A stretch of DNA of 53,885 nt, counting the filler, from an uncultured virus (IMG/VR IMGVR_UViG_2049941000_000426) (Duplodnaviria > Heunggongvirae > Uroviricota > Caudoviricetes). It is 4 parts of one record of this genome, joined end to end, with 100 filler letters (N's around TTAATTAATTAA, not from the genome) between each part and the next. Parts side by side here need not be neighbours in the genome. Positions count along the whole stretch, not along the records: positions 34,646 to 44,435 come from IMGVR_UViG_2049941000_000426; 3 more parts are not named here. One strand, given 5' to 3'. The notes beneath the pieces are model-generated. The model saw only the letters and a program-made list of their open reading frames with translations. It was not told where the DNA came from and ran no database searches. Both the position numbers and the translations under genes were made by a program. Every line of letters begins with the position of its first letter. Within the stretch, counting starts at the first letter, position 1. This document shows positions 3,846 to 44,535 of this stretch, piece by piece.

Positions 3846-3899
3846 GTCTGTTCCTGTAAGGGTAAAGGGATGTAGTTCGTCACATCCCTTAATATCGCA

Positions 3900-4265: not shown

Positions 4266-4275
4266 NNNNNNNNNN

Positions 4276-4416
4276 GGCCCCTTTCAGGGCGTTCGTATAA
4301 GTATCGAAGTGGTACCACAGCCAGTCCGCCCAGTCCAGCATCTCGCCGACTGTCTTCGGCGTCAGCTTCCTGGAGATCGTTTCGATGAGGTCGTGTTTGG
4401 ATACGTAGTCGATCAT
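4276..4416 (-). CDS. Hypothetical protein, N-terminal fragment
   Basis: MIDYVSKHDL...; truncated by a gap. Confidence 0.45.
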
Positions 4417-4431
4417 GGGGAGAAAGGAATG

Positions 4432-5496: not shown

Positions 5497-5521
5497 CTTG
5501 TCATCTTCCTTTCTTGTTGTT

Positions 5522-6244: not shown

Positions 6245-7251
6245 GTCCTGGCATCATCGGTTGAAGGGGTTGAGGGGGCTGTGGCGGCTTCGAAGGGTCC
6301 TGCTGGGCCACCATTCCGGTATACCAGCCCGTCGGAAGGTTCTGTCTAGGGGAGTTGTTCTGGGCGAATGGCCATCCGCCCTGCTGCTGGGGTTGCTGTT
6401 CGTTTCCGCCGCCGAAAGCCGAGGCAAGACCCCCGACAGCCAGAAGGCCGCCGGGGACCATCCACCACCAGTTGTTCCCCATGAATTTCTTGACGCCCTG
6501 CACTTTGTCGTTCCACTGCTGTTTCATCTGGGCGGACACCTGGGGTTGCGCGGTATTGAACACAGACTGCGCACGGGCGACAATATTCATCATCTGGCGA
6601 CCGTGCTCCCTGGTTTTGCTGTCACCGGAGTTCATCTCATACAGTGCGTGCTGATACATGGCATTCAGATCCTGCTGTGTCCGGGTATTGAACTTCTTGA
6701 AACCGTTCATGGCCTGCCACGTGCCTTGCTTGTCGTAAANNNNNNNNNNNNNNNNNNNNNNNNNNNNNNNNNNNNNNNNNNNNNNNAATGCCACGAACAT
6801 TCTTTCCTATCTGATCCTTGACTTGATCCTTTCCCATCGTATACCAAGGCATCGTGGCTTTCATGAAAGCCACGGTCTCCGGTGCGACATCATACTGGGC
6901 CCCGTTTCCCTCCAGCTTGAATCCGTTGTCATCCAGACCAGACAGGGTTTTCGCGAAAGCCTTCCTTCCGAACAAACCAAAATTGGCCGTGTCGTTCATT
7001 ACCCCTCCAGTCCCCATGCCTGTTCGCATCTCAACGGCGTTCGGGTCGAACAAGGCTCCGCTGTTCGTCACAGACGACATCCATCCCGACTGAGTGTGCG
7101 GGGTGTGCATATAATGCCACATGTTCGGGTCGAACATGTTGTTCACATACCGACTAGGGTCTAGTTGACGAAGGGGCTTCCCATCCGGTCCTGTCTTGGG
7201 TCTGTAAAGTTGCTCTTCAAGGTTACCCCACTTAGGACCGAATTGCGTCAT
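6237..7251 (-). CDS. Hypothetical protein with a C-terminal hydrophobic helix and Gln/Pro tail (spans gap)
   Basis: MTQFGPKW...[gap]...WWWMVPGGLLAVGGLASAF...MMPGLA*. Confidence 0.65.
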
Positions 7252-21221: not shown

Positions 21222-21774
21222 CGCTGACCTCCTGTTTCCTTTTCCATTTCTCCTGCGCTTTGCGCTTCTTTTCCAGACGGCGTTCCCAGGCCGTGTACTT
21301 GTATATCTCGGCCTCCATCTCGGCGATTAGATCCTCGTCCCGCACGGTGTCGCACAGGGGCAGCGTAACACCCCTGCCACCGACCGTGTCCACGAGTCTC
21401 GTCAACAGGTCCTGCATGGACGCCGTGAACCCAGACGTGCCATAAGACGAATAATTCAAGTCCATCGCCTCGAGCAGAAGACTTTCTATAGTCTTCTGTT
21501 TGTTAAAGGTCCTTTTACGTAAGTTGGACAAGGCCCCCTTTAGTCCGGACACTTTCCATTTCAACCATGCCTTCATGTTCGGATACAACATGCTGGCGGT
21601 TTTCTCCTCCGGACGACAACCACCCTTCGGATGAACGATGAACGTCACCTTCGGCGGTTGCTGGCCGAAACGGCACACCGCATAGTCTATAACGCCCTTC
21701 ACTGGGCCATGGGGGCCATTCCAGACGACCCCCTGGCCCATGTGACTGTACAGGTTCTTGTATACCGGTATCAT
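21208..21774 (-). CDS. Hypothetical protein, 188 aa
   Basis: Intact ORF coupled to the MTase stop (TAATG). Confidence 0.7.
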   Translation of the reverse strand: MIPVYKNLYSHMGQGVVWNGPHGPVKGVIDYAVCRFGQQPPKVTFIVHPKGGCRPEEKTASMLYPNMKAWLKWKVSGLKGALSNLRKRTFNKQKTIESLLLEAMDLNYSSYGTSGFTASMQDLLTRLVDTVGGRGVTLPLCDTVRDEDLIAEMEAEIYKYTAWERRLEKKRKAQEKWKRKQEVSDGEV

Positions 21775-23333
21775 TATATCGCCTCCAATGCGGCCCTTAT
21801 CAGGGCCTCGCTCAGTTTCGGGCAGACCGCGTTCCCTATCTGCTTGATGACCTCCGATTTCTTCTTTCCCGCGAACTTGTAGCTGTCGGGGAAGCTCATG
21901 GCTTTCGCCAATTCATGTGGCTGGAGCATCCGGAACGTGATGTCCAGCTTGTAGGACCTCCCGTCAGGAAGGGTGATGACCTGTCCCTCGACTACGCCGA
22001 AACGGTCCTTCGTGGGGATCGTGTCGACAGGCTCCGAGACCGGCTTGCAGGACTTGTTGTTCCCGTAGTACGCCTGGATCATCGGCTGAACGACGCTGAT
22101 GGCGCCGGCCGTGCTGATGGTCGGCAGGGGCTCCTTCGTCGGCTTGGCCGTCCCGCAGGACTGCTGCGGGATGAACAGCGGAGTGACGACGCCCTTAGAC
22201 CCATGGTCGCAAACGACCGTTCCGAGAGGGGCGCTCAAGGGCTTTGTCTTCCCGCTGTCGCCGCTCTTGGTGTGGGACAGGTCCACGACGAAACCCTCCA
22301 CGACGCCATGCCGGTTGGCGCAGTCGACGGTCGGGACGGGGGCGTCGAGGTTCCCATTCCGCTTCTCTCCTCCATCCCCACCGTGGTAGGTGGCTAGGAA
22401 CGGCTCCNNNNNNNNNNNNNNNNNNNNNNNNNNNNNNNNNNNNNNNNNNNNNNNNNNNNNNNNNNNNNNNNNNNNNNNNNNNNNNNNNNNNNNNNNNNNN
22501 NNNNNNNNNNNNNNNNNNNNNNNNNNNNNNNNNNNNNNNNNNNNNNNNNNNNNNNNNNNNNNNNNNNNGATCCGCCGGATGGTGTTTCTGTGAAGCGGGC
22601 GTTTCCGGTTGAAAATGGACTGCCCCTTGAGACTCCAGTCGATGACGGTGCTGGCGGCCTCCCATTTCGGAAGACCGTTCGCGCCTGTCCTGGAGTGGGT
22701 CTGCTTCGGCCAGACGATGCGTTCACCCGTCCCCTGCCGGACCGCCTGTATGATGAGGCGAGTCCTGCTGGTGGGGGCTCCGTAGTCGGCCGCGTTCATC
22801 TGCCGGTACTCAACGTCGTACCCGCTGACACGGATGGAGTTCAGCCAGTCGATGAAGAACTCACCATAGTGCCTCGGGTCGGGCGTCCCGGCCTTGTGGG
22901 CCCTGCCTTCGATGAAGGTATCCTCGGGAAGGAGCGGGCCCCATTTCATGAAGTCGGGGACGTTCTCGACATAGAGGCGCTTCACGATGAGCTTGCGTAT
23001 CCACGTCAAAAGAAGCTCGGGCTGGCAACGCGACTGGTTCTGGCGCGGCATGCCGCCCTTCGCCCTTGAGTGGTTCGTGCATTCAGGCGACGCCCAGAGG
23101 ATGTCGAGGACACCCCCTGGGACGACGTCGGTGGGCTCCATCCCGTCGACGGAGGCGCAGTAGTAGTCCCCCGCGTGGTTGGAGCTGATGGTGCTGATGG
23201 CGACGTCCCAGTGGTTGACGCCGATCAGGTGGTAGGGGATTCCGGCCTTTTCGAAGGCGCTGACCATCCCCGTGGTCGTTCCGCCGGCCCCACAGAAGAG
23301 GTCGGCGACGTTAAGAACTCTATTTGTTGTCAT
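21774..23333 (-). CDS. dcm: DNA (cytosine-5) methyltransferase
   Basis: Motif I DLFCGAGG, IV WASPEC, VI ENV, VIII YGAPTSRTRL, X QIGNAV; start MTTNRVL. Confidence 0.95.
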   Translation of the reverse strand: MTTNRVLNVADLFCGAGGTTTGMVSAFEKAGIPYHLIGVNHWDVAISTISSNHAGDYYCASVDGMEPTDVVPGGVLDILWASPECTNHSRAKGGMPRQNQSRCQPELLLTWIRKLIVKRLYVENVPDFMKWGPLLPEDTFIEGRAHKAGTPDPRHYGEFFIDWLNSIRVSGYDVEYRQMNAADYGAPTSRTRLIIQAVRQGTGERIVWPKQTHSRTGANGLPKWEAASTVIDWSLKGQSIFNRKRPLHRNTIRRIXXXXXXXXXXXXXXXXXXXXXXXXXXXXXXXXXXXXXXXXXXXXXXXXXXXXXXEPFLATYHGGDGGEKRNGNLDAPVPTVDCANRHGVVEGFVVDLSHTKSGDSGKTKPLSAPLGTVVCDHGSKGVVTPLFIPQQSCGTAKPTKEPLPTISTAGAISVVQPMIQAYYGNNKSCKPVSEPVDTIPTKDRFGVVEGQVITLPDGRSYKLDITFRMLQPHELAKAMSFPDSYKFAGKKKSEVIKQIGNAVCPKLSEALIRAALEAI

Positions 23334-23530
23334 AAGTATTCGAACTGCCATCCGTCTCCGTGAATCTTGTCCCTTTTCACATCCTCCGCCGCCTTCATGA
23401 CAGCTTCGGTTATTCCTTCGAGGGCCTTCATCGGGGAGTTCCCTTCGGCCGCCTTTCCCTTGTGAATGTCCCACACAGTCTCCGGAAGGAACACCGCCTG
23501 CCATAGTTGATGATAGGCTGTATTGTCACC

Positions 23531-23630
23531 NNNNNNNNNNNNNNNNNNNNNNNNNNNNNNNNNNNNNNNNNNNNTTAATTAATTAANNNNNNNNNNNNNN
23601 NNNNNNNNNNNNNNNNNNNNNNNNNNNNNN
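23531..23630. other. Artificial scaffold linker
   Basis: 44 N + TTAATTAATTAA + 44 N. Confidence 0.95.
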
Positions 23631-27788: not shown

Positions 27789-30700
27789 TTAATTTGCTGT
27801 GTAGTTGAATGTATACTGACCAGTTGACTGGTTGTACGTCATGGTGACTTCGCCGTTCAGCAAAGGCCCGACCATCGTGAGGAACGCCTCGAAGGACTCC
27901 TTGCTTATGTAGTTCTCAGGAAGTTTGGTGATTGTACGGGCATAATCAGCCGCATAGAGAACAACACCTCTGAAAGGAGCTGTTGTAGGAACATAACCAT
28001 TTGCAGGCAATGATTCCTCAGTGCCGTAGTCGCTAATCTGCGCGGTGAGGTTGGGGGCCTCGTCGTAGGTCGTGGTTACAGGCGTGGCGAGTTCATAGAC
28101 CAGCCATCCCGTGGGGGACTCGGTGGCGGAGCCGTTGTTGACACGGATGTTGCCAGACGTGGCACGTACACCNNNNNNNNNNGCCTAAGCTGACATTGTT
28201 GCTACTGGTAGCGACATACAAGGAGCTTACCATCGGAGCGACAGTGGCATGGTCTGCGGGCCTCATAATGGAAGACGCTATCCCTGTGCTTTCCCAGTAC
28301 CCATATGTTCCTCCGTTGATGTGATTCCACTCCAACGTCCCCAGATCGACCTTTCCGAACCGCCTGACGTAGTTCCGCTCGTTCATCTCGTCATATACGG
28401 AGCCACGTCCATTCATACCATCTGGGAAATATGTAAGAGTGGGAACAGGTCTTGTATAGCTCCAGTAGGGTTCATAATCACCATTTCTAGTACCAGACCA
28501 CTGCAGATAGAAACATGCTTCGGTTTCTCTAGGAAGATAAACAGATAGTCTAACCCAATAAGCATTTGCTGGGGCCGTGAAGGAGTCCTCCTGCCATACT
28601 CCAGCATGTCCATAGTTTGTTCCACTTATGAAAGTCTTATCATAAGTATACCAACAAAGTGATGGGGCATTACCTTGAGCAGTAAATCTATATACCTGTC
28701 CAGGAATAACTCGGAGATATTCTGAAACACTGTAGTTAGTACTGTCATAATATCCTCCAGTAACTGTGAGATACTTACCTATTACAGAGTACTCACCAGT
28801 AAATTGATTGAACCCCACGCGCTTGAGTCCTGTACCCTTGTAATTCAACAAGCTACCTTTGTTATAAGGCAGTTTGTACCCATTCCAAGCAGGGAACAGT
28901 TGGTAGAAGTCAGCAAGTGTTCCAGGCTCAAGTGTAGCACCAAACATCCTTGTAAGGTCAATGAGGTTGTCCCTGCCGCCTCTGACATCAACGGAAGAGA
29001 CGCCTGTTACAAGCTCTGTAGTACCATAAATAGTCTTGATATACTTTCTGGCAGACTTGGTGGCAATGGTATAGTCAGTGCCTGTGTACTCCATGTTAAT
29101 AGGAGTAGAGGTGATGTTCACGTCTTCTTCATGAACATTGTTCAGACCTGCTGAGAAGGTCAGGGGCTGGGGAGTTTCAGAAGTGGTGGAAGGAGTAGCA
29201 AGCTCATAGTAAAGCATGACGCCAGACATGGCAGCTTTGAACGTAGATGCTGTAGTGTAGGTGGAATCTCTCACAATCAGTTGACCCGTACTCAGACCAG
29301 AAGATGAGTATGTGGATATGCTTTTATCTTGTATACCCTCTTGACCAGCTGTCGCTTTGGTCAAATACCTACCACATATGATAGGATTGTAGGACAGACC
29401 AGTTCTTATATCTACATACAAATATGCTGTATANNNNNNNNNNTGTATAGCTATTTTCTGCGACAGATGAAGACGTAGCCCACGTCAACGTCCCCATATC
29501 CACACTTCCAAACTTCACATCTTTTTCACCTGTAATGATGTTCTGTGTCTCAACAACACTACCAACACCTTGCAGGTTACTAAAGGTTGCGCTACCACCC
29601 ATCGGCGTGCCAGCATCATAAGCTTGATACTGTGTAAGATCCTTGCCCCACTTCAAGCAATCTGCTTCAAACTCTTCAACGGTTGAAGGTTCATGACCAG
29701 CACCATAGATAGCTGTGAGGTCGAAGAGCTGGGCGTTGCGGACAGAGAATGTATCACCAATCTGGATGTAGTTTTTAGTAGATCCAGTAGCACTGGTATT
29801 CTGATTAGAGAAATAAACTGTAGCAACACGCTTTTTGCTGGCAGGCGGTATAGCTATATAGGAGCACGTTCCCCAAGTATCCACCGCTGTTAGTGTTGTC
29901 GGAAAATCATTGTCTGTANNNNNNNNNNNNNNNNNNNNNNNNNNNNNNNNNNNNNNNNNNNNNNNNNNNNNNNNNNNNNNNNNNNNNNNNNNNNNNNNNN
30001 NNNNNNNNNACCTTTAGTAAATCAGAATTTGATGATTTTGCCTCAAATCGAGCGTAGTATTTGTGCCCAGCGATAACATCATATCTAGTTTTCAGGTTAA
30101 AGCCCCAAACCCAGTCAGAGCCTGTAGTAGTACTAATGACAGTAACTGTGATGGTATTCGTTGAAAATGCTATACTCGTACGTGATGTATCGTAGGCTTT
30201 CCAATAATCACTAGAAGCCTCCCTTATCAGCTGGTTCCACCTAGCAGTAGTCACACCACCTGTTCTGCCAACAACCTCGCCTTCATTGTAAGCAACTGTG
30301 GAGTTGTACTCAGGCATGACAGCAGCCATGTCATTCCAAGATGTAATAGCTGTTATAGCAGTGCTGTCACCATTGAACATCCTGGTAACATCCACCAGCA
30401 TGTCTTCATCACCATTGACAGCCTGTGTGGAGGATGATGTTATGATTGACTTTGTACCATTGTCACTGAAGGCATACTTGTGTGTAGAGTCCAGAGCAAT
30501 GTCATACAGTGTACCGTCATAAGTAAGGTTGAAAGGTATTGTCATACCACCATCAGTTTGAAGAGCTACATTGTTGCCCTTCTGGAATGAGAGAGTTGCT
30601 GGGGTGAGGAGTTCTTCTGTGGGGGTGGCGAGCTCGTAGTAAAGATAGACACCTGACATGGCGGTTTTAAAAGCTGTCTTATCCCCATTATAGGAGTCGT

Positions 30701-33700
30701 CTCTAAAGAATACAGCCTTGCCTTGGCCACCTTTTCCGGTATACATTTTATCCGNNNNNNNNNNTCACACCGCCTGTTCTGCCAACAACCTCACCTTCAT
30801 TGTAAGCAACTGTGGAGTTGTACTCAGGCATGACAGCGGCCATGTCATTCCAAGATGTAATAGCTGTTATAGCAGTGCTGTCACCATTGAACATTCTGGT
30901 AACATCCACCAGCATGTCTTCATCACCATTGACAGCCTGTTCGGTGGACGAAGTGATGATGGACTTGGTCCCGTTGTCGCTGAAGGCATACTTGTGTGTA
31001 GAGTCCAGAGCAATGTCATACAATGTGCCGTCATAAGTAAGGTTGAATGGGATGGTGCGTCCACCATCAGACTGGAGTGCTACATTGTTGCCCTTCTGGA
31101 GTGAGAGAGTTGCTGGAGTGAGAAGCTCCTCGGTGGGGGTGGCTAACTTATAGTAGAAGTAGACACCTGACAATGCTGTTTTAAGTAAATCTTTGTCAGT
31201 ATAATGACTATCATATAAATAAATCCGTTTTTCCCCACTCCCTATTGCTGTAAAATAATGATNNNNNNNNNNATAAGAATTACTGGTAAATAAAGTATAC
31301 CGACTGCATACCAAAGATATATCATTATTGTTTGTTTTCTTACCGGAAGGGGAACAATAGAATATACCATAAGTAGTTTCATATCCCCAATCCATCGTCC
31401 CCAAGTCCACACTTGCCATCCTATGCGTCAACTTCCCTGTAACTGCCTCAAAGCTATCAGCAGCAGTACCTACAGCAAAGAGTTCCTGCGGTGAGGTGGC
31501 CATGCCGCCGTCATGGTAGGGCTCGTAGGAGGTGGGGGTAGAGCCGAGTTCGAGCTGGACATCCTTGAATGAGAAGCCACCAACAGTAGACGGGTCAACT
31601 CCCAGAATATTGATGGATATAGTGTACGTTCCTGCGGGCAATACTCCGGCTGGAGCACGCAACCAGCAGTTTGTGGTTCCGCCGCTATGCCCTATGCGCA
31701 AATCCGTATAGGAAATAGACTCAGCGAAGGTGAAAGTAATACTTTGGACACCTGGCTGAGTAACTTGTCTCGATAAGCTCATTAGCGACTGAGTTTTGTT
31801 GAAAAACGCCAAAGTCAGTGCGACANNNNNNNNNNTTGGAGTAAACCCCGTCGCTGACAGTCGTATTATTGTCCAGTGGGGTTTTCACTTTGAACAAGTT
31901 CTTCCCCGTCGCCTTCACCTGCGGCTGCACCCCTTCAACCGTCCCAGTGTTGTACTCCACGTAGCTAGCGAAGCGCGGGTCATAAGCAACCAGGTCATCC
32001 CACGAGGTGATACTGTCGATGAGCGTCTGGTCGCCGTTGAAGTACTGGGTGAGGTCGACTATCATAGCATTCTTGAGTGAGTACACAGTGCCAACAGGTA
32101 AGTTAGCGGTTGTGTCACTTCCATCTTTCTTATAAGGCCCGAAGTACAAGAACCTGTCGGTGCCGCTTTTAGTATTCAAAGTTCTTTTTACTACAGTTGT
32201 TGTCCACGGAACACTATCCTGTATAGACATATCGCCAAACCATTGAGTAGGGCCACCTATGTAACCAAGATAATAACTGTGTGCCTCATCAAAACTCTGG
32301 GGTAAATCTAGCTTCCATGTGAAAGCAACAAGAATACTATGACCGTTTTTGTCATCAGAAAACACTGATGTTGGCTGCCTAATACAGCTAGATGCTGAAC
32401 TCACGGCACAAGTTGCACTTGCCACTTGATTTTCTACGGTTAATGACCAATTCCCACTACCTCCTGTAGTACTCCACCCAGTTGTTCCATCACTGAAGTT
32501 CCCATTCTGCACCAACTGATTCACCACCACACTTCTGGCAGCATTCAGCACCAAACCTTTAGGTGTCTCAACAATACCATCATTAACAGCAATAACACCA
32601 TCACTGCTGTTGACTGTTCTTTCTGTTGTAGGTGAAACCAACTGGTTCTTCACCAGACTTCTACCACTGACAACAAGTGAAGCAACATCTGAAACAACCG
32701 CATCCTCAACTTCGACCTGTCCATCACCTGTAACAGTGTTCTGGTTCGTGTCATGGACAAGCTGGTTGAGGTTGAGTGTAGTGCCTTTGATCTTCTTGGC
32801 AATGGCAGTACCATCTGCAAGGTCAACATCACCGCCTGATGTTCTATAGGTGAACTCAGCAGGTGTACCTTCGGCATTCTTGTCAATAAGGTTGTCNNNN
32901 NNNNNNCATCATATAGTTCCATTCCAGCAAACGAAATATTTACAGCGTCAGAACCAAAAGATACTATAATTGTCTGACCAGCAGGAATATCAAACATAGA
33001 GCTAGAATACACAGAGTAATTAGTTGGCATACCACTAACAGTGACAGAACCATCAGCGTTAGGTTGCCATTTTACACCATTTAAATCTTGTNNNNNNNNN
33101 NTAAATCTTGTGTTGTTGTGAATTTAGGTTGGAAATTCTTCCCCGTCACCTTCACTTGCGGCTGAACTCCTGCAACTTCTCCCGTGTTGTACTCCACATA
33201 GCTTGCAAAGCGCTGGTCGTAGGCGACCAAATCATCCCAAGAGGTGATGGAGTCGATGAGAGTCGTGTCACCGTTGAAGTACTGAGTGATGTCAACAAGC
33301 ATTACATTACTAATCTGCATTGTATCACCAATGGAGTAACTATCTGTCCTATCGACTATATTATAATAAATACCAATATGGCATTTTGAATACGATGGAG
33401 TGACATTTGCGTTGCTTGTTCCTGTAAAAGAAATTGTTTGTGCTACATTGGCTGATAGTGTTATATAGCTTTTACGTATATTTGTCCCCAGAAGCTGTAT
33501 GCTCGTACCTGTTGTATTTCTACTGGCTTTTACCGTTGCCGTGATAAGATATTTATGCCCATTTATTATACCAACATCTGGGACTGGAGAACTTGCGAAA
33601 GCATTGTTATTACTTTCTACCGCGTTTTCAGAGATAGTAAAAGTAAGTACATTGGAGTCAACAGAGTTAGTACCTTTCCACGCTCCCCAACCTGATGGAG

Positions 33701-34545
33701 TTGTACTCAAGTCACCATTGACCAAGCTGGTTCACCACCACACTTCTGGCAGCATTCAGCACCAAACCTTTAGGTGTCTCNNNNNNNNNNACCAAAGTCG
33801 TTGACGGGGTAGGCCAGGTTGAGCGGCTGGTCTATCTGGGTGACTACTGGAGTGGCGAGTTCGTAGTAGATCAGGCAACCAGTGAGAGCTGTCGCAAGCT
33901 CCGTGTCGGAGAGGGACAGGAGGGAGGAGTCAACGAGATAAATACCCGCAGTTGATGCATTGCCAAACAAAACACCGTCATTGGTAAAAAATGGATCTGG
34001 AGTCGGGTAACGTGTAGATGCCACATTAGTTGCTCCAGTTTTCCTCGTGCCTGGAACCGCTGTAAAAAAGCCATATGGATACGTGCTGTTCGGCTGCTGT
34101 CTTGTCCACGTAAGCGTACCAGCGTCGACTACACCCCATCTGACAATCTTCTGCTCAGCAGTCAGTTCATCGGCAGTATCACCGATACCGTTCATCCCCT
34201 CAGGGAAGTACGTGCTGATGGGAAATTCCTTCACGTTGCTGATGAAGGGCTCCCACTTGTACTCCGGCTCCCCGTAGTTCTTGTAGCCCGACCATACAAG
34301 GTGGACGCAGGTGTCCGTGTTGTTGCCACCCACCACCGTCAGGACTCCATTGTTGACGGGCGTGAAGATGCCGGCTGAATCAGGCGTAATCGTCTCGGTC
34401 TGGCCGAAGACGTCCACATAGCTGACACTGGTGTACGTCCCGCATATCTGGTACTTGTTGCCGCCGAGAAGAGCCGCCGTCCCCGTCGCATGATTGTAGG
34501 CGTTGAAGCCGATGGTCTGGACCCCAGTGCCCTTGTAGTTCAAAA
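27789..34545 (-). CDS. Giant modular tail-fibre/adhesin gene 2, middle and C-terminus (fragmented, includes alternative alleles)
   Basis: Recurrent motifs VDLGTLxW, YELATP, DLTQYFNG..WDDLVAYD, NYKGTG..GFN; ends ...YISKESFEAFL...FNYTAN*. Confidence 0.7.
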
Positions 34546-34645
34546 NNNNNNNNNNNNNNNNNNNNNNNNNNNNNNNNNNNNNNNNNNNNTTAATTAATTA
34601 ANNNNNNNNNNNNNNNNNNNNNNNNNNNNNNNNNNNNNNNNNNNN
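34546..34645. other. Artificial scaffold linker
   Basis: 44 N + TTAATTAATTAA + 44 N. Confidence 0.95.
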
Positions 34646-34832
34646 AAGGAACCGCAGATGGGCGTAGGAATCTGCAGCGTTACGATTGATGTATTGCCAT
34701 TCGCCAAAGCAAGTGACTGGCCCATAGTCTGGTGCGATGCCTTACGCGTCTCGATGCGATAATTGCCAACAGGCAAACGGCCATGCCAACGCCCCACCCC
34801 TTTATACTCATCGTTAATCCATNNNNNNNNNN

Positions 34833-35577
34833 ACTCGTTGCCCTCACCGTCCCTATAGATGTACTTGCAGTTGCGGATGAGCGGGATGGAGTAATCGGTG
34901 CCCTCATAGACCGTGTCGAAGGAGCCGCCCGAGAGGGTGTCGTCGCCCGTCGTCAAGGAGAGAGACTGAGGAGTCTCCGTGGAGGTCGTGGGCTCTGCTA
35001 ATTCGTAGTAGAGGATAGCTCCTGAAACGTACGCCTTGAACTCCACGGCTTGCGTGTTAGTAAAGGACATGCACTTGACATACAGGATTTTGTTCCCGCT
35101 TGACTTGGCGATACTGTTGTCTGGGTAGGAGTTGAAATCAGAGGAAGCCCAGTTAATAGTCAGCGCCTCCAGCTTGGACGACACGACTATTCCGCAGACA
35201 CCAGACTTGATGTCAGTCAATGTATCACAGTAGAAGTAGCCCTGCGTGCTGCCTGTCTTCCACGTCAGCGTCCCCAGGTCCACGCTCCCCATCCTGACGG
35301 TCTTGTCACCTGCAACAGCTTCTACACTGTCATAAGCAGTTCCCGCGCCGTACAACGGGGCGGTGTTCACGGCGTTCGTCAGCTCGCTGTCGTAGGTCAT
35401 AGCTCCAACAGGCGCGACAGTGTTGGTCACGCTGACCGTCCTTCCCGATACGGTGGCGGTGTAACCATTGGCGAACGTGACGGAGGAATTAGGCGTCATG
35501 TCCTTGACAAGCGCCTTCCAAACACCTTTGTTGTTGCCTCTCCAGTCGAGGGTCGATGCGATCTGAGTGATGTTCAT
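34833..35577 (-). CDS. N-terminus of giant fibre gene 2
   Basis: MNITQIAST... with VDLGTLTW, YELAEP and RNCKYIYRD modules shared with fibre 1. Confidence 0.7.
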
Positions 35578-35617
35578 TATGCTGTTCCTGTAGTAAGGAG
35601 TGTATCCGTGTTTCTAT

Positions 35618-35647
35618 ATTATAATAAGGTATAGTTGCAAATTTCAA
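35618..35647 (-). promoter_or_regulatory. Putative sigma70 promoter of fibre gene 2
   Basis: TTGAAA-18 nt-TATAAT, with the -10 box ending 40 nt upstream of the ATG at 35577. Confidence 0.45.
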
Positions 35648-35663
35648 TGAAAACCATTGAAAA

Positions 35664-36851
35664 TCACTTTGACGGTGTCACCACCGCTGGCGTACTATAC
35701 ACCTCTATCGAGTAGTCAAGCGTTCCGTTTTTCGGGAACGCCTTTTCCCCGACTTCTTTTCTCATGATGTTGAGACTGCCGTTCAGGTCGGCGTTTATCA
35801 GTCGTCCAGATTTGCTTCTGAACAGACCACGCTTGACACGCCGTCCCATATATTCATCATGGTGGCATATCGGTTCGTCGTCCAGAAAACTGCATTTGGA
35901 CGTGTGAGACTCGTTGACCTGGATAACGGTTATGCCGGCCATGCGGCATTTGTACTCCATCATGCCGATGAACTTCTCAAATGGAATTGATACAAAGGTC
36001 TGGTTATTCTTCCTGCCCATGTTCGCCTCTTGCTTCCATCCGTCGTTCTTGCCTATGACAAGTGTGTTGACGTCCCTGGAAACTAACCGATTGACGACCA
36101 TACGGCTCGCCTTGTGGAGATAGTCCTTGACCTTATTGTCTCGCTTCCGGTTCATGCTTTTCGCTTTCCGTGATTTAAGGTCCCTGCATTTGCTTTTCCT
36201 CTTGTTGTAGTATTGGTTAATGGATTTCAGCGGTCTTCCGTTAACGATGAACGGCTTCCCGCAGTTGAACGACACTGTCGCCAGATTGGAGACTCCAAGG
36301 TCGATGGCGGCATAGCGGCCGTTGTCCGGTTTCATCTCCGCATCTGGAGTGTTGTAAACGACTTCCACGTCATAGCAGTTGAACGTTGGTCTTGGCACGA
36401 CCCTGACGCACGCAACATTTTGGATGTCATCTCGGATCTTGAATCTCGACTCAATTCCCGCCAGTTTTATATAGCCTTGTTTCAACGCCGGCTTGGAAAT
36501 AGCCTGCATCGTGAACATCAATACCTGCCGTCCATTCTTCGGAAGATATTTCGGTATCCTCGCCTTGATGCCTTTCTTAACAAGCGCAAAGAACGACTTG
36601 AAACTACTATCAACAAGTTTCAAGACCATCTGGCTGACCTTCGTGTTCATGGCGTAGTAGTCGGAATTCTTTGTCGCGATGAACTCATGGCCAATCGTGA
36701 AGTTGCTCTTATATTTCCCTGTCTGGAAAAAATGCTGTCTGACGGCATACAGCGCGGCGTTGTACAGGTTCTTGGACAGAAAACACGCCCTGTCCAGCTC
36801 CACGTACTCCGCCGTGCCTTTTTTGACTCGTATGCGCTCAGTCAGCTGCAT
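35664..36851 (-). CDS. tnpB: TnpB RNA-guided endonuclease (IS200/IS605/IS607 superfamily; solo, no tnpA), 395 aa
   Basis: SKNLYNAA; RuvC-I AIDLGV; RuvC-II VIG with alternative E in VNESHTSK; RuvC-III NADLNGSLNI. Confidence 0.93.
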   Translation of the reverse strand: MQLTERIRVKKGTAEYVELDRACFLSKNLYNAALYAVRQHFFQTGKYKSNFTIGHEFIATKNSDYYAMNTKVSQMVLKLVDSSFKSFFALVKKGIKARIPKYLPKNGRQVLMFTMQAISKPALKQGYIKLAGIESRFKIRDDIQNVACVRVVPRPTFNCYDVEVVYNTPDAEMKPDNGRYAAIDLGVSNLATVSFNCGKPFIVNGRPLKSINQYYNKRKSKCRDLKSRKAKSMNRKRDNKVKDYLHKASRMVVNRLVSRDVNTLVIGKNDGWKQEANMGRKNNQTFVSIPFEKFIGMMEYKCRMAGITVIQVNESHTSKCSFLDDEPICHHDEYMGRRVKRGLFRSKSGRLINADLNGSLNIMRKEVGEKAFPKNGTLDYSIEVYSTPAVVTPSK

Positions 36852-36885
36852 TGTCCTTTTAAAGTTCCCTTATCAATTTTTCCTG

Positions 36886-37188
36886 TCACCGGAAGACGTA
36901 GGCCGTCTTGCCGTCCTCCGTCTCCACTTCTGTCACAACCGCCGTGAAGGGTTCCTTCCCCTTCTCCCTCTCCCATTCCAGCGCGTCGTCCTCCAGACAT
37001 TTGGAATGCGTAATGAAGACAAAAGGCCTTCCGTTCTCCCAGAACTGGAAAAGAAACCCCTTTCCATACTTGTTCTTGAACGGCCCCCAGTCGGTGAACT
37101 CAAGTTCCTTGTCCTTCACCTGCGTCTTGTAGTCCGCCTTGTCGCCCTCTATCCTGCGTTTGGGCCTGACAACTTCCCTGAGCCTCAT
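36886..37188 (-). CDS. 100-aa putative DGR accessory protein, translationally coupled to the RT
   Basis: ATGA overlap with the RT stop and GGAGG RBS; MRLREVVRPKRRIEGDK...FVFITHSKCL...PFTAVV; beta-rich, unlike helical Avd. Confidence 0.65.
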   Translation of the reverse strand: MRLREVVRPKRRIEGDKADYKTQVKDKELEFTDWGPFKNKYGKGFLFQFWENGRPFVFITHSKCLEDDALEWEREKGKEPFTAVVTEVETEDGKTAYVFR

Positions 37189-38207
37189 GCGACTTCCTCC
37201 AGGCATTGTTTCAACGGCCTTCCCACGACTCTCTTCCAGAATCTCCTGCCATCGGTGAGTTCTGTGGTCCATCCATAGTAGGATGCCAGCGACCTGTAGG
37301 ACTTTTCATCCTTGCATGTCTCAAAGCGGAGGGTTGCACTCCTAAGCCTCCGCTCTATCCGCTTCCTCAAAGTGATCGAATACCTATGAAACACCAGTCC
37401 CATGAAATCAAGCCCGTGCTCGTCTATTGACTTCACCTGTGCGGAATTCTTCACCCGCAGTCCAAGTGCGTCCATATAGGCTCTGACTTTCTTCAACGCG
37501 TTCCACAATGCCTCCTTCGACAGGGCAATCAGGATGATGTCGTCACAGTACCGGAAGCAGCCTACAATGCCTGGCAGTCTGACCACCCAGTGGTCGAAGT
37601 CATTCAGATAGAGGTTGGCGAGAAGCTGGGATATATAGTTGCCTATTGGAAGACCGTTCAGGTGACTGTCGATGATGGTGTCGAAGAACTTCAGGACAAG
37701 GGGGTCCTTGACGACCTTCCTGACCTTCGTCTTCAGGATGCCGTTGTCGATGGACGGATAGTATTTCCTGACATCCAGCTGGATGTAGTATACCGGAAGG
37801 TGCTGCAAGCCACGCAGGAGCTTCACGATGCGCTTCTTCCCATACGTCCTGCCCCTTCCCTCTATACCGCTGTAGGTGTCGGGGATGAACTTCGAGACGA
37901 TCCTCCTTCCGACAACGTTGAACACGGCATGCTGCATGACATTGTCGGCAAAGGAAGGGTTCCAGTCTATCTTCCTCCGCTTGCCATGCTCCGTTCTGGT
38001 GAAGCTCCTGTACTGTGGAACAGGGATGTCGCCGGAGAGGAGCCGGTAGCGTATTTTCAGTGCGTTGGCGTCCAGGCTCCTCATGAACACTTCGGCATCC
38101 TTGGCAAGGGCGTTGTCCTTGCTCCTATGATGCAGAGCGTCATGGATGGCGCGTTCGATGTTGTCCATCGACGCTATCTGTTCCATGACGTTACCTATGC
38201 GCTTCAT
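37185..38207 (-). CDS. Diversity-generating retroelement reverse transcriptase, 340 aa
   Basis: MKRIGN start, E.GKRRKI, LDVRKYYPSID, GLPIGNYISQLLANLYL (DGR SQ motif), RYCDD, GLDFMG; no maturase or endonuclease domain. Confidence 0.95.
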   Translation of the reverse strand: MKRIGNVMEQIASMDNIERAIHDALHHRSKDNALAKDAEVFMRSLDANALKIRYRLLSGDIPVPQYRSFTRTEHGKRRKIDWNPSFADNVMQHAVFNVVGRRIVSKFIPDTYSGIEGRGRTYGKKRIVKLLRGLQHLPVYYIQLDVRKYYPSIDNGILKTKVRKVVKDPLVLKFFDTIIDSHLNGLPIGNYISQLLANLYLNDFDHWVVRLPGIVGCFRYCDDIILIALSKEALWNALKKVRAYMDALGLRVKNSAQVKSIDEHGLDFMGLVFHRYSITLRKRIERRLRSATLRFETCKDEKSYRSLASYYGWTTELTDGRRFWKRVVGRPLKQCLEEVA

Positions 38208-38420
38208 TTCCGATATTCCAAGATTAGCTTATGCTGTCGATTTTTTCGGCTCCTTGCTGGCCGCGTTCGGAGAGACTCCTACCAGCGGTCCTGGGGTTGC
38301 TTTCCTTTGACCAGTTCATTGAATACCCTTACGGGTGGCGAACCCACCTTCGCCCCTGAGTGTCGTCGGGGCGTTTCCACGGTCATGAAGTCGGCTTCGA
38401 GAATTTTGTCTAAAGGGAGT
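38208..38420 (-). ncRNA. TR-RT spacer, probable structured 3' part of the DGR template RNA
   Basis: About 210 nt between TR and RT with no minus-strand ORF; short stems such as CGCCCC...GGGGCG at 38351-38373; same position as the BPP-1 Sp region. Confidence 0.5.
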
Positions 38421-38540
38421 CTAAGGGCGACCGCTGATGTTCACGTTCGTATTCGCGAGCCCGTTGTTGACATTGCGATTCGCGAGCCCGTCATTGGACC
38501 CGTTGTTACAGTTGCCACCGACGTAGGCGACACGGCGGTC
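38421..38540 (-). repeat. DGR template repeat (TR)
   Basis: Not part of any minus-strand gene, yet reads DRRVAYVGGNCNNGSNDGLANRNVNNGLANTNVNISGRP* with 11 AAC/AAT codons, a typical CLec-VR template. Confidence 0.92.
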
Positions 38541-38671
38541 TTAAGCCGACTCCATACGCCCGGCCGATCGACATAACGGCCTTTTTATACAGGGGCGTGC
38601 TGTTCAGGTTGTCTTGCTTCCTATGTCTTCATGATGGATTCCACGTTCAATATACTCTTCATAAACGGCTC

Positions 38672-38745
38672 GGGGCTCTGGCGAGCCCCTCGCTTTCGTC
38701 CTCGCTCCGCTCGGACGCGTTTCCCGCTCGCCGCCTCACGGCGGC
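38672..38745 (-). promoter_or_regulatory. Two GC-rich hairpins downstream of the target gene (DGR target-recognition elements)
   Basis: Minus strand GCCGCC-GTGA-GGCGGC (38730-38745) and GGGGCTC-GCCA-GAGCCCC (38672-38689). Confidence 0.7.
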
Positions 38746-38759
38746 TCGCATTCCGTTCC

Positions 38760-41700
38760 CTATGAGCCCTGCGNNNNNNNNNNNNNNNNNNNNNNNNNNN
38801 NNNNNNNNNNNNNNNNNNNNNNNNNNNNNNNNNNNNNNNNNNNNNNNNNNNNNNNNNNNNNNNNNNNNNNNNNNNNNNNNNNNNNNNNNNNNNNNNNNNN
38901 NNNNNNNNNNNNNNNNNNNNNNNNNNNNNNNNNNNNNNNNNNNNNNNNNNNNNNGGCCGTCGTTGTACCAGTAATCGGGCAGATATCTGCCGCTCGCTCC
39001 TGGACTGCCCGTCTTCCGCATGAAGAAGGTAGCTGGATCGAACTTGGAGTCCCATCCGGACAGCGGCCAGTGGTTGTGTCTGACCGTATAAACAGGGTTC
39101 GCAGCGGTCCGCTGAGCCGTCATGGTGTAGTCATTCGTGGCCAGGGTCTCCCAGTAGCCCTCGGATGAATAGCGGTAAATGGGCTGATCCTTGTACTTCG
39201 TCGTCACGGACGTCGTGAGGGTGGCGTCGCTGTACATCGTCGTGGAGGTTCCGGGAGCCGCCGTGTTCGTCCACAGGACCGTGTCGCTCGTGTTCTTCCA
39301 TGCGTAGGAGGAGGGACCGTCGCTCAGAAGATCGCGTGTGTACGTCAGGTTGTCCGTTCCACGGAAGGAGCGGAGGGATCCCGTCTGGAACTTCTGGATT
39401 CCATGCTCGAACTCCCAGACCTCGCCGAAGGGGTTCTCGATCCCCCTGTACTGGAACTGGATGACGCGGTTGGACTGGAGCGTGTAGGAGGCTACCGTTC
39501 CCGCGGTCGTCGTCCCCGTGGAGGCGCTGTAGACCACGTCGCCGTTGGCAGGCGTGGGGGAATTCGTGAAGTACCGCGTGGAGGAGGCCGTCCTGTTGTA
39601 GACGCTCCAGGCGTAACGCCCGTCGGCGTCTGCGTTGGTGTCCCTCTGCACCTGTGTCGAGCCGATCGTGAACCGCTGGAAGTTGTCCATGTCCTGCGTA
39701 TTCTCGACAGCAGTAATGGAGGCCGTCCCGTTGCCGGCGTTGACCCGGCCCGACTTCCGCCAGAAGCAGAAGGCGTTCTGGATGCCGCTCGCATATCCGT
39801 AGGAAATGACCTGGTTGTCCAGCGATCCCTGCTCGATCGCCATCAGGAGGAACAGCCACTGATGGAACTTGACGTTCACGGTAGAGCCCCCGTTCCTTCC
39901 GGAGCGGGTAGTGAGATCGGCCAGGGAGACACTCACGTATGGCAGTGCCCCTGCAATGCTTCTCGCCTTGTTGGTGCCGCTTGTACCGGTGGACTGGCTC
40001 AGCGCCCCCTCCGTGGTGTTGATGGGGGTGCCGTCGGCATTGCAGATCGATGCACGATACGCTCCAACGTACTGCTTCCTTGGCGTATCTCCATTCGGGC
40101 TAACATAGAAGAAATCGTGGATCTCGGCGGGGTAGTATGAGCCCATGAACGGCTGGTCCGAGATCAGCCACAGCACCTTGCCGGTGCCCTGGTAGTCCTC
40201 GTCGACGTCCCAGTAGCCGATGGGCATCTCAACCATGACGTCGCCGTCAGCGCCTGTAAGGACGGAGGCGGAGCCGTCTGAGGCGATGCCGTTTCTTGTC
40301 CCGTTGTACTTCTTGTCCGAGTCTTCGTCGTCGAGGTAGTAGGCGATGGTTCTGTTGGCCAGGTCGCTCATGACGCAGCGGTACAGCTCATGGCAGGGAT
40401 GCGACTTGAAGGCGTCGAACGAGGCGACCTCGGAAAGGACGCCGTTGTTCAGCTCCACCCACTGGCAGGCGGGGGGATTCTNNNNNNNNNNATGATTCCG
40501 TAGGCGTGCTCGTTCGGGAACACGCGGACGGTCGGGCAGTATGGCTCGACGGTGCCTGGGTTGTACGGCTGGAGGTCGCGGTAGCGGTGGAAGCGCGTTG
40601 AAAGAGACGCCCAGGAGTGGATGTTGGCTATCTTCGTGGCGTCTCCGTTGTAGAGCTGCGTGATGTCGACGAGCTGATCCTCGCCGCCCACCGCCTCGAT
40701 GGAGGACTGGCCGGTTATGAGGGAGTCGTCCTCCTGGTTGTCGTTGAAGACGTAGGTGTGGGAGGGGTTGAGGGCGATGGTCTGGTCCTTGCCGTCGTAA
40801 GTCAGGGAGAGTCCGCACTGGCGTGTTCCGGCAGTCTGGAGGGCCGTGTTGTAGATGTCAACAGTGGGAATTGTGGTGGGGTTGTACTGGGAGGTGGTGG
40901 GGGTGGCTTTCACAAAGTAGGCAATTCTACCAGATAACGCTGTCTTTATTTGATCCGCTGTTTTACCCTCCAAAGAGGAATCTGTTAGATAACATGTACT
41001 GTTACTGGATGTTCCCATTATAGTTTTGTCTGTTGAGAAGCCATTAGAATAAGGCATATATCCAGGACAAATAATGCCAGCATAATTACCTATTTTTCCA
41101 GACACACCAAATCTCGTATAACCATAGGGGTAGGATGAATCAGGCGCGTGATAGTCTATGTATGTCAATGTTCCTAGATCAACACTATCTGTATACTTAG
41201 TCAATATTCCAGAAACACTCTCATACGTATCTGGGTTAAGATCTCCCCACTTAACTGTACTGTTTATCCACATAGGAACAGACATCAGCTCCACGGGGCA
41301 CGCTACGTCGGTCGTGTGGTTCACCTTGACCGTGGGCTGTACGCCCTTCACAGTACCAGTGTCATAGGGTACGTAGGAAGCAAAGGAACTGTCATAAGCT
41401 ACAAGATCATCCCATGAGTTAATGGAGTTGATGAGAGTTGAGTTACCGTTGAAGTACTGGGTAAGATCTACGATTTGTAATCCTACGGATATTACCCAAT
41501 TGGGATGGAATACACACCCACTCGAGTTGTACACAGTTACCGTGTAGTCTCCAGAAGCCAATGAAAATGGCATTTTCAATGAAGCGTTGACAAAACCTGT
41601 TGGGAAAATCTTGTTTTGTTCGTCCAAATATAACCTGAAATACACGCTACCTTCAATGTTGTTCAAGTTGAAAGGTCTGTTTAGGAGATATGTATGTCCG

Positions 41701-44435
41701 TTAATCATCGGCATAGTTAACATTGTAAGCCAAAACGATGATGTAAAGTCTTCGGTATTTGTTCCATTGTATATAACGACATGATTGGATACCGAGCGTA
41801 CAGCGTTATTTGTTACCGTTGATGTTGTAATGCTGAAACCATCAGCATCTTGTGCCAGCTGGTTCATCACCACGCTTCTTGGAGCCGTCATGACCAAACT
41901 ATGAGCGTTCCCAGCCACTCCGTCCTCGACTCCCAATCTGCCAGTACCTGTAGCAGTCTTCTCTACAGACTCTTTGACCAACTGGTTATGAACAACACAA
42001 CCACCCTTCAGCAACAGTTTGGTAACATCACCACCAACAGCATCTGTCACCACCAGCTTCCCATCCGTGGATGACTTCTCGTTCATGTTGGTGTCGTGTA
42101 CCAACTGGTTCTGTATCTGGGTGGTGCCCTGCAGGGAGGTCACGTCCGCCGTGCCGTTGTCGGCTATGGAGACATCGCCCGCAGCCGTCCTGTTGCCGTA
42201 GGAGGCCTCGGTAGGAGGGGCGTTGGGGTCGAGGAGCTGGGTGGCGTAGTTGAACACGCCGCCCTTGTCGCCGTAGTTGCCGTCCTGGCGTGCGAGGTTG
42301 TCCTTCTCCTCGACGAGCTGTTTGACATCGTTTTCAATTTCGCTGTAATGGGCGACGGTGCGCGTGAAATCGAGGGAGTAGCGGATCTCGGCGTCGAGGT
42401 CGGTGGTGAGAAGCGTCAATGTGTTGACGGGGAGGGACTGCTCCGTGCCGAAGTCGTTGACGGGGTAGGAGAAGTTCTGGGTGGGAGTCACAGGAGTCGT
42501 ATATGTGTCGTCTGTGTGATTGTCGTTCAACGCATAAACAATCTCAATCGGGTTGGCTTGTAGATACTCCTTGAATGCATCCACATCAAGAGTGTCAGTC
42601 TCCTTGTCCCAACAAGTCTGTGGAATACCGGAGTTGTCTTCAGTAATGGAATATTCCCATACCACATATAGATTGGAACTTCCGTTATCCGCTCCAAGCC
42701 ATACAGTAGAGCCGTATGCGTCGCCTAACGTCATCCTGTATTGAAGTTTAATAGAACTGGCACATGCAGGTTTGTACCATGCTCTGGCTCCAATAAGACC
42801 CGATACGGAGAAACCTCTCCAATTTGTACCACTAGCATAAGCAGACCAATTTTCACTACCGTTTATTACAAGTCTTCCAGTAGTGGTAGTGGCATTGTCG
42901 GCAGTGATCAAATCCCTCATGGGTTCTACGGAGTCCTGCCTGTCATACAGCCCATTCATCCCGTTGGGGAAGTACTGGCTAAGATCCCATGTAACACCTT
43001 TCTCTTCATAGGGCAGATACTCATAGTCCTCTTTACCGAAGTTCTTATAACCACTCCAGGTAAGGTGTACACATGTGTCTGTATCATTACCGCCTACAAC
43101 AGTAAGTGTACCATTGTTAAGAGGTGTGAAGAGTCCATCAGCATCAGGTGTAATCTCTTCAGCATTACCCCACTGATCAACATACGAAACAGAGGTAAAG
43201 GTACCACAGATCTGATACTGGTTACCACCAAGCAGAACAGCAGTACCTGTGGCATGATTGTAGGCATTGAAGCCTATTGTTCTTACACCTGTACCCTTGT
43301 AGTTGAGGACGGTGCCTCTATCATAAGGAATATCAGCATCTTTCCAAGTCGGGAAGAGCTTGTAGAAGTCTGCAATGGAGGGTTCCCTGTTACGACCAAA
43401 CCACTGTGTAAGATTGATGAGCTTGTGTTGCCCACCAACTACATGCTTGTAGGTGACTGTTGTAGAACCTGTCACAAGGGAGTCTTCACCATTGTCACGG
43501 AAGATGTACTTGCAGTTACGGACAATAGGTTCATCCCACTCAGAAACAGCATGACGGATGTCAAGAGAGACAGGAAGTGTACCAGCCGTCTGGAGGACTG
43601 TAAGATTACCTGTTGACTGGGTAAGAGGTTGAGCAGTTGTAGTGGAGGAGGTGTAGGTCGCAAGGCGGTAGTAGACGGTCTTACCAGCAAGTTTAGCCTT
43701 CAATTGGTCAACAGTGGTGCACGACGTGTCGCGGATTCGGAACGCGTTGGCGGNNNNNNNNNNTTGATATGTAAGAGCCAAGGAGCATTGTCTTGTACCT
43801 GCTGTTTGAAGAGCAGTGTTGTAGATGTCAACAGTGGGGACTGTTGTTGGAGTGTAGGTAGAGGTGGTGGGGGTGGCGAGAGGATAATAGAAAANNNNNN
43901 NNNNTGGTATTTGAGCAAAGAAAACACGGTTAGTCCACTTCCCGCCATTATTGCCATAACGCCAACTCAATGTTCCCAAGTCCACACTTGTAACTTGTCT
44001 TCCAACTATACCACTGACGCCATCAAACGTATCCACAGTATCATTACTCACCCAGAACAGCTCCACAGGGCAAGCAACATCTGTAGTGTGATTGACTTTA
44101 ACTGTAGGTTGAACACCTTGAACAGTGCCTGTGTTGTATCCAACATAGGAAGCAAAGGAACTGTCATAAGCTACAAGATCATCCCATGTGTTGATGGAGT
44201 TGATGAGAGTTGAGTTACCGTTGAAGTACTGGGTTAAGTCGACGCACATCATGTTGCGGAACTCAGCGTATTCACCCGAAGCAGCTGCGTTGTTGATAAT
44301 CAGACCCAACGCCGTTGTCCCTGTTCCAGAATAAGCCGAACCGTCGCCTACTACAGTGCAGACTTTCCACGAGGACGACGAGGACTCGGGTGTAGTCGTG
44401 GCGAGAATGCTGACATTGGATGTTTGAATCTCGAC
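38760..44435 (-). CDS. Giant modular tail-fibre/receptor-binding protein 1 with a C-terminal CLec-type domain; DGR target (5' incomplete, VR in gap 38774-38954, stop tentative)
   Basis: Repeated fibre modules, then YGI..NPPAC...GADGDVMVEMP...YVGAY...YRGIENPFGEVWEF...YLPDYWYNDG[gap]; these motifs typically precede a GG.....G..G VR. Confidence 0.8.
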
Positions 44436-44535
44436 NNNNNNNNNNNNNNNNNNNNNNNNNNNNNNNNNNNNNNNNNNNNTTAATTAATTAANNNNNNNNN
44501 NNNNNNNNNNNNNNNNNNNNNNNNNNNNNNNNNNN
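44436..44535. other. Artificial scaffold linker
   Basis: 44 N + TTAATTAATTAA + 44 N. Confidence 0.95.

Follow-up and report, generated by a model that had tools for sequence, protein, structure and literature searches.

Several groups of TnpB nucleases carry a rearranged RuvC-II site. The available text of PMC10691335 describes a major clade, RIIr-5, in which the catalytic Glu has become Gly together with a compensating Glu, and gives 89% of TnpB clusters as immobile. The part of PMC10530073 at hand places an alternative Glu ~45 residues away in Fanzors and in 'TnpB2' proteins, and reports that members of the rearranged class, TvTnpB and ApmFNuc, cleave in vitro. Fanzor-like prokaryotic TnpBs are defined, in the available sections of PMC10711439, by a DPG motif with the alternative Glu before CxxC pairs. 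Among the papers listed on both subjects, no mention of a coupling between a diversity-generating retroelement (DGR) and TnpB was found. An earlier note had pointed to such a coupling in an uncultured caudoviricete phage (IMG/VR IMGVR_UViG_2049941000_000426), where a tnpB with a rearranged RuvC-II appeared to be in an operon with a DGR.

The DGR cassette and its assembly

The window analysed here is the whole stretch of 53,885 nucleotides from this genome, filler included. It contains linkers of 100 nt (44 N + TTAATTAATTAA + 44 N) at three places (23531, 34546 and 44436) and ~50 more N runs, and is thus a gapped scaffold chain and not one clean contig. Both tnpB and the DGR lie on a single piece (34646-44435), where the minus strand reads, in order, fibre gene, tail-protein gene, template repeat (TR), reverse transcriptase (RT), small ORF, tnpB and fibre-like gene (Table 1). 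Megablast of 34500-38700 against a phage GenBank collection returned no match, and the sequencing runs found to contain the stretch were labelled bovine gut metagenome.

Table 1. Positions of the features in the window.
Feature	Positions	Strand	Details
Fibre-like gene	34646-35577	minus	directly downstream of tnpB; cut by scaffold linker
Guide-equivalent flank (ACCTTATTATAATATAGAAA)	35611-35630	minus	differs in every copy
Promoter-like site	35618-35647	minus	11/12 consensus match only; -35 TTGAAA in right-end hairpin, -10 TATAAT in flank
Candidate omegaRNA/reRNA scaffold	35631-35800	minus	overlaps tnpB 3' end; 5' limit provisional; terminal hairpin 35638-35658, then ...GCAACTAT at 35631
Stretch common to mobile tnpB element	35631-36860	minus	~9 nt before ATG, tnpB and 33-nt right end
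tnpB ORF	35664-36851	minus	395 aa; RuvC-I D184, canonical RuvC-II position G267, alternative Glu E314, RuvC-III D355
Spacer, accessory-gene stop to tnpB ATG	36852-36885	minus	34 nt; no similarity to the L043/L044 left end
DGR-linked accessory gene	36886-37188	minus	100 aa; stop 36886-36888; ATG overlaps RT stop (ATGA)
DGR-type RT	37185-38207	minus	340 aa; RVT_1 7.4e-9; phrog_1423 2e-79; IGNYISQ and YCDD motifs
Template repeat, at least this part	38423-38535	minus	AAC-rich
181-N scaffold gap, expected place of target-gene VR	38774-38954	minus	
DGR target gene (tail protein), part upstream of gap	38955-40818	minus	phrog_5302 1.3e-17; 59% identical to L124 homologue
Large fibre gene	40449-44309	minus	

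The cassette has the parts that define a DGR, namely a DGR-type RT, a TR/VR pair and a target gene. The VR itself is an N gap in the window, and the TR is repeated within the target gene's 3' end in run contigs (X1 and X2), which pass 38770, add 82 letters and then repeat 38423-38535. As to an Avd, no ORF lies between target and TR; downstream of the RT there is instead a beta-rich protein, encoded by the small ORF. This accessory protein has eight homologous clusters (100-101 aa, 63-95% identity) and no Pfam or PHROG match, and its fold matches were weak (best Z 5.6, OB-fold/SSB-like rows).

Separately assembled X1 and X2 contigs covered 36773-38770 and 35306-35695 with 0 mismatches, tiling both tnpB junctions; they come from the probable source sample and are therefore not independent of that sample. 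An X5 contig from another study (~90% identity) bridged 36544-37065, which is the same junction without a left end; the X5 and X6 runs yielded short pieces only, so that gaps in their cover carry no weight, also as regards an empty site in X6. A minor, single X2 contig linked 35331 with 36883 across opposite strands, the kind of joint expected if the tnpB segment were inverted.

The TnpB protein, its element and its right end

The gene does encode a TnpB, of a variant type that had been described before. Its product matched Pfam OrfB_IS605 (3e-19, 69.8 bits, cut-off 30.5) and Cas12f1-like_TNB (1.8e-12, 47.7 bits, cut-off 26.3), within a family so large that 7,993 of 8,000 scored candidates had E<=1e-10 and 5,805 representatives E<=0.001. 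In alignments with 18 and with 43 relatives (identity down to 36%), D184 (IDLG), G267 (LVIGKND), E314 (VNESHTSK) and D355 (NADLNG) were each invariant. In a profile alignment built from the 43 sequences, G267 aligned with the catalytic Glu of solved Cas12f chains, E314 fell 47 aa past it, just ahead of a YTSQ-like motif, and D355 fell on the RuvC-III Asp; a PDB search with the single TnpB sequence gave rows at E 0.3 only, the Cas12f alignment coming with the profile. The canonical RuvC-II Glu is thus absent, replaced by an invariant Gly with an alternative Glu downstream, as the earlier note had read it. That note had also called the zinc finger degenerate. Between RuvC-II and RuvC-III there was no CxxC pair, and no Cys column reached 90% conservation in the 18 or the 43 relatives, so the C4 zinc finger is absent clade-wide. 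In an AlphaFold2 model (pLDDT 90.4), G267 ends the strand 263-268 and E314 follows directly after the strand 308-313. Foldseek with this model matched Cas12f, TnpB and Fanzor2 at TM 0.6-0.66 (8h1j, a TnpB; 8iaz; 9b0l; Cas12f chains; E 1e-12 to 1e-18). Judged from the alignments, the G267/E314 rearrangement and the zinc-finger loss extend through the clade, which is of a published class (TnpB2 / RIIr), and neither is a local oddity; the protein is probably still an active RNA-guided nuclease.

The limits of the element were given by two metagenome contigs, L043 and L044, with tnpB copies 92% and 90% identical to that of the window in nucleotides. Homology (blastn; L043 119-1351, L044 1239-2470) ended in the window at 35631 and at 36860/36859, and the flanks of both contigs were unrelated to the window on both sides. 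On the right it stopped after ...GCAACTAT in window, L043 and L044, with three different flanks beyond. Both copies lie in other regions of phage DNA, that of L043 next to genes for Lar, a sigma factor, a helicase and methyltransferases, and that of L044 next to a Tad3 homologue. Further copies were seen as contigs from X1, X2 and X6 with other right flanks, starting at 35630/35631; several copies of tnpB are present in the sample, and contigs end within the gene. On the left, L043 and L044 have ~90 nt upstream of the ATG in common before their flanks diverge. No remnant of this left end was found in the 120 nt upstream of the window tnpB, where the local alignment scored 14, a value that 282 and 273 of 500 shuffles attained. 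No TAM could be derived from the two left-end flanks.

That tnpB comes without tnpA, as the earlier note had stated, held up in every search of the window: no transposase or recombinase match was found among 63 window ORFs (Pfam, E<=1e-5), no serine-TnpA by tblastn with four queries (E<=0.01), and no Y1_Tnp match for a Y1 (HUH) TnpA among 5 + 63 window ORFs. Among the 61 relatives at loci with >600 nt upstream, 38 had a serine-recombinase tnpA-like gene ending <=300 nt upstream of tnpB, and 6 of the 7 upstream genes tested matched Pfam Resolvase. The clade is therefore IS607-type, not IS200/IS605, the family presumed by the remark that there was no room for a normal left-end hairpin. With neither left end nor tnpA, and with the right end present, the window copy consists of tnpB and right end only.

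The right end may encode a guide RNA. The last 230 nt folded with z = -4.67, and 0 of 200 shuffles folded as well. Of 66 distinct relatives, 30 had a common terminus, (G/C/A)(G/C)AACTAT, <=150 nt past the stop, compared with 0 of 66 in-gene controls, and a hairpin of varying sequence preceded it in 25 of 29 cases, as judged by inspection without shuffled controls. Three close copies had the same fold with 0 of 51 compensatory pairs (RNAalifold), so that the argument for an RNA structure comes from the hairpin variation at family level. For 17 right ends no consensus came from RNAalifold, the hairpins having been set out of register by MAFFT, and hairpins were therefore folded singly. Rfam gave no family for the whole window at gathering score, and for 35500-36100 at E<=1 a chance lncRNA row only. 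The putative 20-nt guide occurred nowhere else in the window when <=3 mismatches were allowed, and no target allele for it came to light; matches of its 12-nt seed in the window were of chance kind, in coding sequence and mismatched at TAM-proximal bases.

Origin and maintenance of the insertion

A site without tnpB was found in two IMG/VR contigs, L123 and L124, which are 99.9% identical and were treated as two records of a single phage. They were retrieved by a scan of IMG/VR with the accessory-protein alignment. The single accessory sequence found nothing in IMG/VR, the accessory alignment found nothing in genome contigs, and a scan with the RT alignment returned the same two contigs only. 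L123 has, in order, the target (59%), TR (79% nt), RT (54%), accessory gene (68%) and then a homologue of the fibre-like gene (43% over 259 aa from residue 1, tblastn), with no tnpB. Its accessory-fibre spacer is 32 nt (TGA CAGG CATACAACACATAGGAACATCCCG ATG); L124 ends 59 nt beyond the accessory gene with the same junction, and the TR homologue in both comes with an internal TR-like repeat. Protein searches of both whole records, a weak negative, found no TnpB, and with the synteny and short spacer preserved the site is empty in this phage. The match between window and L123 runs to TGACAGG (36882) and resumes at ~35589 (blastn 35589-35473 against L123 3075-3191, 78%), which makes ~1.29 kb an insertion relative to the L123 phage. 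Some ~21 nt to the left and ~32 nt to the right of the shared element have no counterpart in L123 or in L043/L044; with an empty-site relative this distant, the original spacer cannot be reconstructed exactly.

The linkage of RT, small ORF and tnpB, whose recurrence in related phages the earlier note had proposed as a check, was not a recurrent one. A TnpB relative was found near none of 38 loci with RT relatives (RT <=37% identity, within the DNA examined), an RT near none of 84 loci with TnpB relatives (43 of them with at least 5 kb examined), and the accessory gene at none of 122 loci. The sole recurrence of the DGR-tnpB junction was the X5 relative. The same note had held that a DGR with an empty site in close relatives, together with near-identical tnpB copies at unrelated loci, would speak against coupling. 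Both were largely what we found, in the L123/L124 phage and in the copies of 90-92% identity, although the relative is not close, with RT at 54% and accessory gene at 68%. A functional coupling of tnpB and DGR is not supported by these comparisons.

The gene nevertheless appears to be maintained. Its dN/dS was 0.16 against L043 and 0.14 against L044, with 35 synonymous and 22 non-synonymous window-specific codon changes, and by this codon-level measure tnpB is under purifying selection. The ORF coordinates bear out the spacing given in the earlier note, with the tnpB ATG (36851-36849) 34 nt from the accessory-gene stop and on the same strand as the RT. From RT to tnpB, the minus strand contained no promoter-like or terminator-like sites, making read-through expression likely, with transcription probably running on from the DGR into tnpB. 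With no left end, no such sites and the short gap, an operon with the DGR is physically plausible, in an arrangement that is not conserved. As the X5 contig bridges the junction at ~90% identity, the junction without a left end is older than ~10% divergence. A useful gene would likewise be expected to persist over that divergence, and selection, read-through and the X5 junction together fit a retained selfish nuclease and a recruited one alike.

We consider it likely that tnpB is a stray IS607-type insertion next to the DGR, its left end lost and its nuclease functional, possibly as a homing passenger. A tnpA-less IS607-family TnpB element would circulate among rumen phages, and one copy would have landed in the short spacer between accessory gene and fibre gene, afterwards losing its ~90-nt left end and with it the capacity for further transposition. 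The copy keeps a nuclease gene whose reading frame is intact and whose active site has the known rearrangement (D184 / E314 / D355), along with the intact right end, from which a guide RNA may be made with the adjoining flank, ACCTTATTATAATATAG..., as its guide, while tnpB is probably read through from the operon of RT and accessory gene. The nuclease would then cut DNA with its TAM beside the flank sequence, that is, the insertion-free alleles of related co-infecting phages, and such cutting would favour inheritance of tnpB by recombination (homing). Adjacency to the DGR would be an accident of insertion. An immobilised but functional passenger is the most likely state of the window tnpB, and we infer that its most plausible role is homing from one co-infecting phage to another.

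Other accounts of the locus differ in what they make of the same observations. Misplacement of a multi-copy tnpB beside the DGR during scaffolding could be suspected in a window built from gapped scaffolds and artificial linkers, in a sample whose contigs break within tnpB, but the X1 and X2 contigs match across both sides and the X5 contig from another study bridges the junction, and we regard such an artefact as highly improbable. A relic decaying after loss of left end and transposase, its protein or RNA no longer made or active, would suit the missing tnpA and left end and the frequent immobility of TnpB elements (PMC10691335, in the part available). It sits poorly with a full-length ORF in which all residues invariant in the 43 relatives are retained, with a right end and terminal hairpin unchanged but for single bases, and with the excess of synonymous changes (dN/dS ~0.15), much of which divergence may predate the loss of the left end; a dead element is in our view improbable.

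Two further readings give tnpB a use. It might be a homing or exclusion nuclease, RNA-guided and independent of a transposase, that has been kept under selection, is expressed from the DGR operon and is guided against the accessory/fibre junction of tnpB-less co-infecting siblings, where repair would copy tnpB together with DGR/fibre receptor-binding alleles and so act as a gene drive for the host-range module; we hold this to be unlikely. Alternatively, a left-end-less tnpB could have been fixed behind the DGR and co-expressed as a domesticated nuclease, its breaks helping cDNA homing into the VR or recombination among fibre genes. The same strand, the 34-nt gap, the lack of an own left end or promoter, the purifying selection, the recurrence of the junction in X5 and the inversion-like X2 contig would all be in keeping with domestication. 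Against it are the empty site in L123/L124 despite preserved DGR synteny, the lack of recurrence at the 38 and 84 loci, the ~90% identical copies in non-DGR contexts, and a guide with no second match in the window at that tolerance, the seed matches being off at TAM-proximal bases. BPP-1-type DGR homing, moreover, is not known to need a double-strand break, and we judge domestication to be quite unlikely. Of the two origins offered in the earlier note, the homing-like passenger is thus the one favoured, and a nuclease domesticated for DGR or fibre exchange is not.

Read as a stray insertion, the apparent partnership of retroelement and nuclease would be corrected to the unremarkable arrival of an IS607-type element that moves among phages and belongs to a described catalytic class. 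The locus adds a clear case of IS607-type TnpB elements spreading between phage genomes, and a copy that, left-end-less and intact under purifying selection, makes transposase-independent phage-to-phage homing a testable idea.

Comparison with described systems

In crAssE-Sib phages, as far as the available text of PMC11054128 goes, a complete DGR is found with TnpB-family genes in only some relatives, as here; that text claims neither adjacency nor coupling, and none is supported in the window phage either. The IS605 TnpBs that serve as transposon homing endonucleases take their guide from the right flank, with the vacant site as the expected target (PMC10055086 and PMC10690162, in the parts available), and the same would be expected here. 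The window copy differs in that it would be unable to excise, and any homing would take place between co-infecting phage genomes.

The earlier note had taken the rearranged active site as a marker of Fanzor-related clades, and this stands in part. The alternative RuvC-II Glu is common to Fanzors and a subset of TnpBs (PMC10530073, available part), the IS607 association of the clade is likewise a Fanzor and pro-Fanzor trait (PMC10711439, available part), and the TnpB model matches ApmFanzor2 (9b0l, TMq 0.65). Set against the pro-Fanzor signature in the available sections of PMC10711439, however, the window RuvC-I reads DLG, not DPG, and the alternative Glu stands five, not six, residues before the first Cys (ESHTSKC, then SFL), with no CxxC; having DLG and lacking CxxC, the protein does not carry that signature.

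With the IS607 family (ISXfa1, PMC10711439; ISFba1, PMC11061315 / PDB 8iaz; both from the parts available), the window TnpB shares through its relatives a Resolvase-type tnpA upstream, and in itself a candidate guide-RNA region with a fixed terminus, in overlap with the 3' end of tnpB, whereas the window copy is without tnpA and left end. ISFba1 differs further in its canonical Glu (D194/E290/D371) and RAGATH-18-derived RNA, the window region having no Rfam match. In catalytic residues the window TnpB resembles TnpB2 (PMC10530073, for example TvTnpB) and RIIr (PMC10691335, notably RIIr-5) as described in the available parts of both papers, an assignment made by residues against the published descriptions. 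Like them it has Gly for the RuvC-II Glu, a conserved alternative Glu that follows the next beta strand, ~45 aa downstream, NADxN at RuvC-III and a length of ~400 aa. It differs in its loss of the C4 zinc finger, on which the available text of PMC10691335 says only that some large branches lack it, with RIIIr-4 named.

Copies and flanks of the tnpB element

Copies of the tnpB element about 90% identical to that of the window lie at unrelated phage loci. The copy in metagenome contig L044 adjoins a homologue of Tad3 (anti-Thoeris; L044 184-858), and that in contig L043 adjoins genes for Lar, a sigma factor, a helicase and two methyltransferases (L043 2119-7223), with window positions 21774-23504 being approximately 70% identical to the C5 methyltransferase of L043. 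In X5, a sequencing run of another study, pieces of the tnpB 3' region (window 35686-35836 and 35938-36087; ~150 nt each) have 0 and 3 mismatches, with the phage genes neighbouring tnpB differing from the window by 7-18%. The low divergence could mean that the element has spread recently or that the candidate guide-RNA region is strongly constrained.

In X2, a run of the probable source sample, a single minor contig links 35331 to 36883 on opposite strands (depth 10 vs ~70), and 36883 is the exact end of homology to L123, a syntenic DGR phage with an empty site. An inverted tnpB segment, a different gene order in a relative, or a chimera could each account for this joint. The near-consensus promoter-like site is split, its -35 lying in the right-end hairpin of the element and its -10 in the flank; a comparable -10, judged by eye, was absent from the L043 and L044 flanks. 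Positions 4-17 (TTATTATAATATAG) of the candidate guide, the flank directly past 35631, have a 14-nt exact copy within a fibre ORF (33358-33371, - strand), which was rejected as a predicted target because the three TAM-proximal bases are mismatched.

Features located in the window
Feature	Position	Strand	Remark
Promoter-like site, near-consensus (11/12)	35618-35647	-	just upstream of fibre gene
Conserved 100-aa protein gene	36886-37188	-	translational coupling to DGR RT via ATGA overlap
Artificial linkers, three identical (44 N + TTAATTAATTAA + 44 N)	23531-23630, 34546-34645, 44436-44535

Accessory gene and repeats of the DGR

The ATGA overlap is apparently also present in L123, and no Avd gene was found at the window DGR. 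The predicted model of the accessory protein is beta-rich (pLDDT 84.8), and its resemblance to ssDNA-binding proteins with an OB fold is only weak, with a best Z of 5.6 and Foldseek E values of at least 0.057; this protein may represent a novel type of accessory factor for DGRs. A scaffold gap (38774-38954) falls exactly at the expected variable repeat position, as would be expected if repeat diversity had broken the assembly, and run contigs place template repeat sequence (38423-38535) in this gap, with 82 letters followed by 113 nt identical to the template repeat.

Assembly and the downstream fibre genes

From the three identical linkers and ~50 further N runs, many of them gaps of 10 N, the window is seen to consist of gapped scaffolds strung together, and the four pieces need not have their genomic order and orientation here. 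Positions 28093-35577 appear as an array of separate fibre 'cassettes', the ORF limits of which coincide with one linker and with eleven N gaps between 28173 and 34832, one of which is 91 N long and the others 10 N each. The assembly may have split a single long repetitive fibre gene, or a few such genes, into these cassettes. In L123 the gene following the accessory gene is one ORF of 1273 aa (3051-6872).
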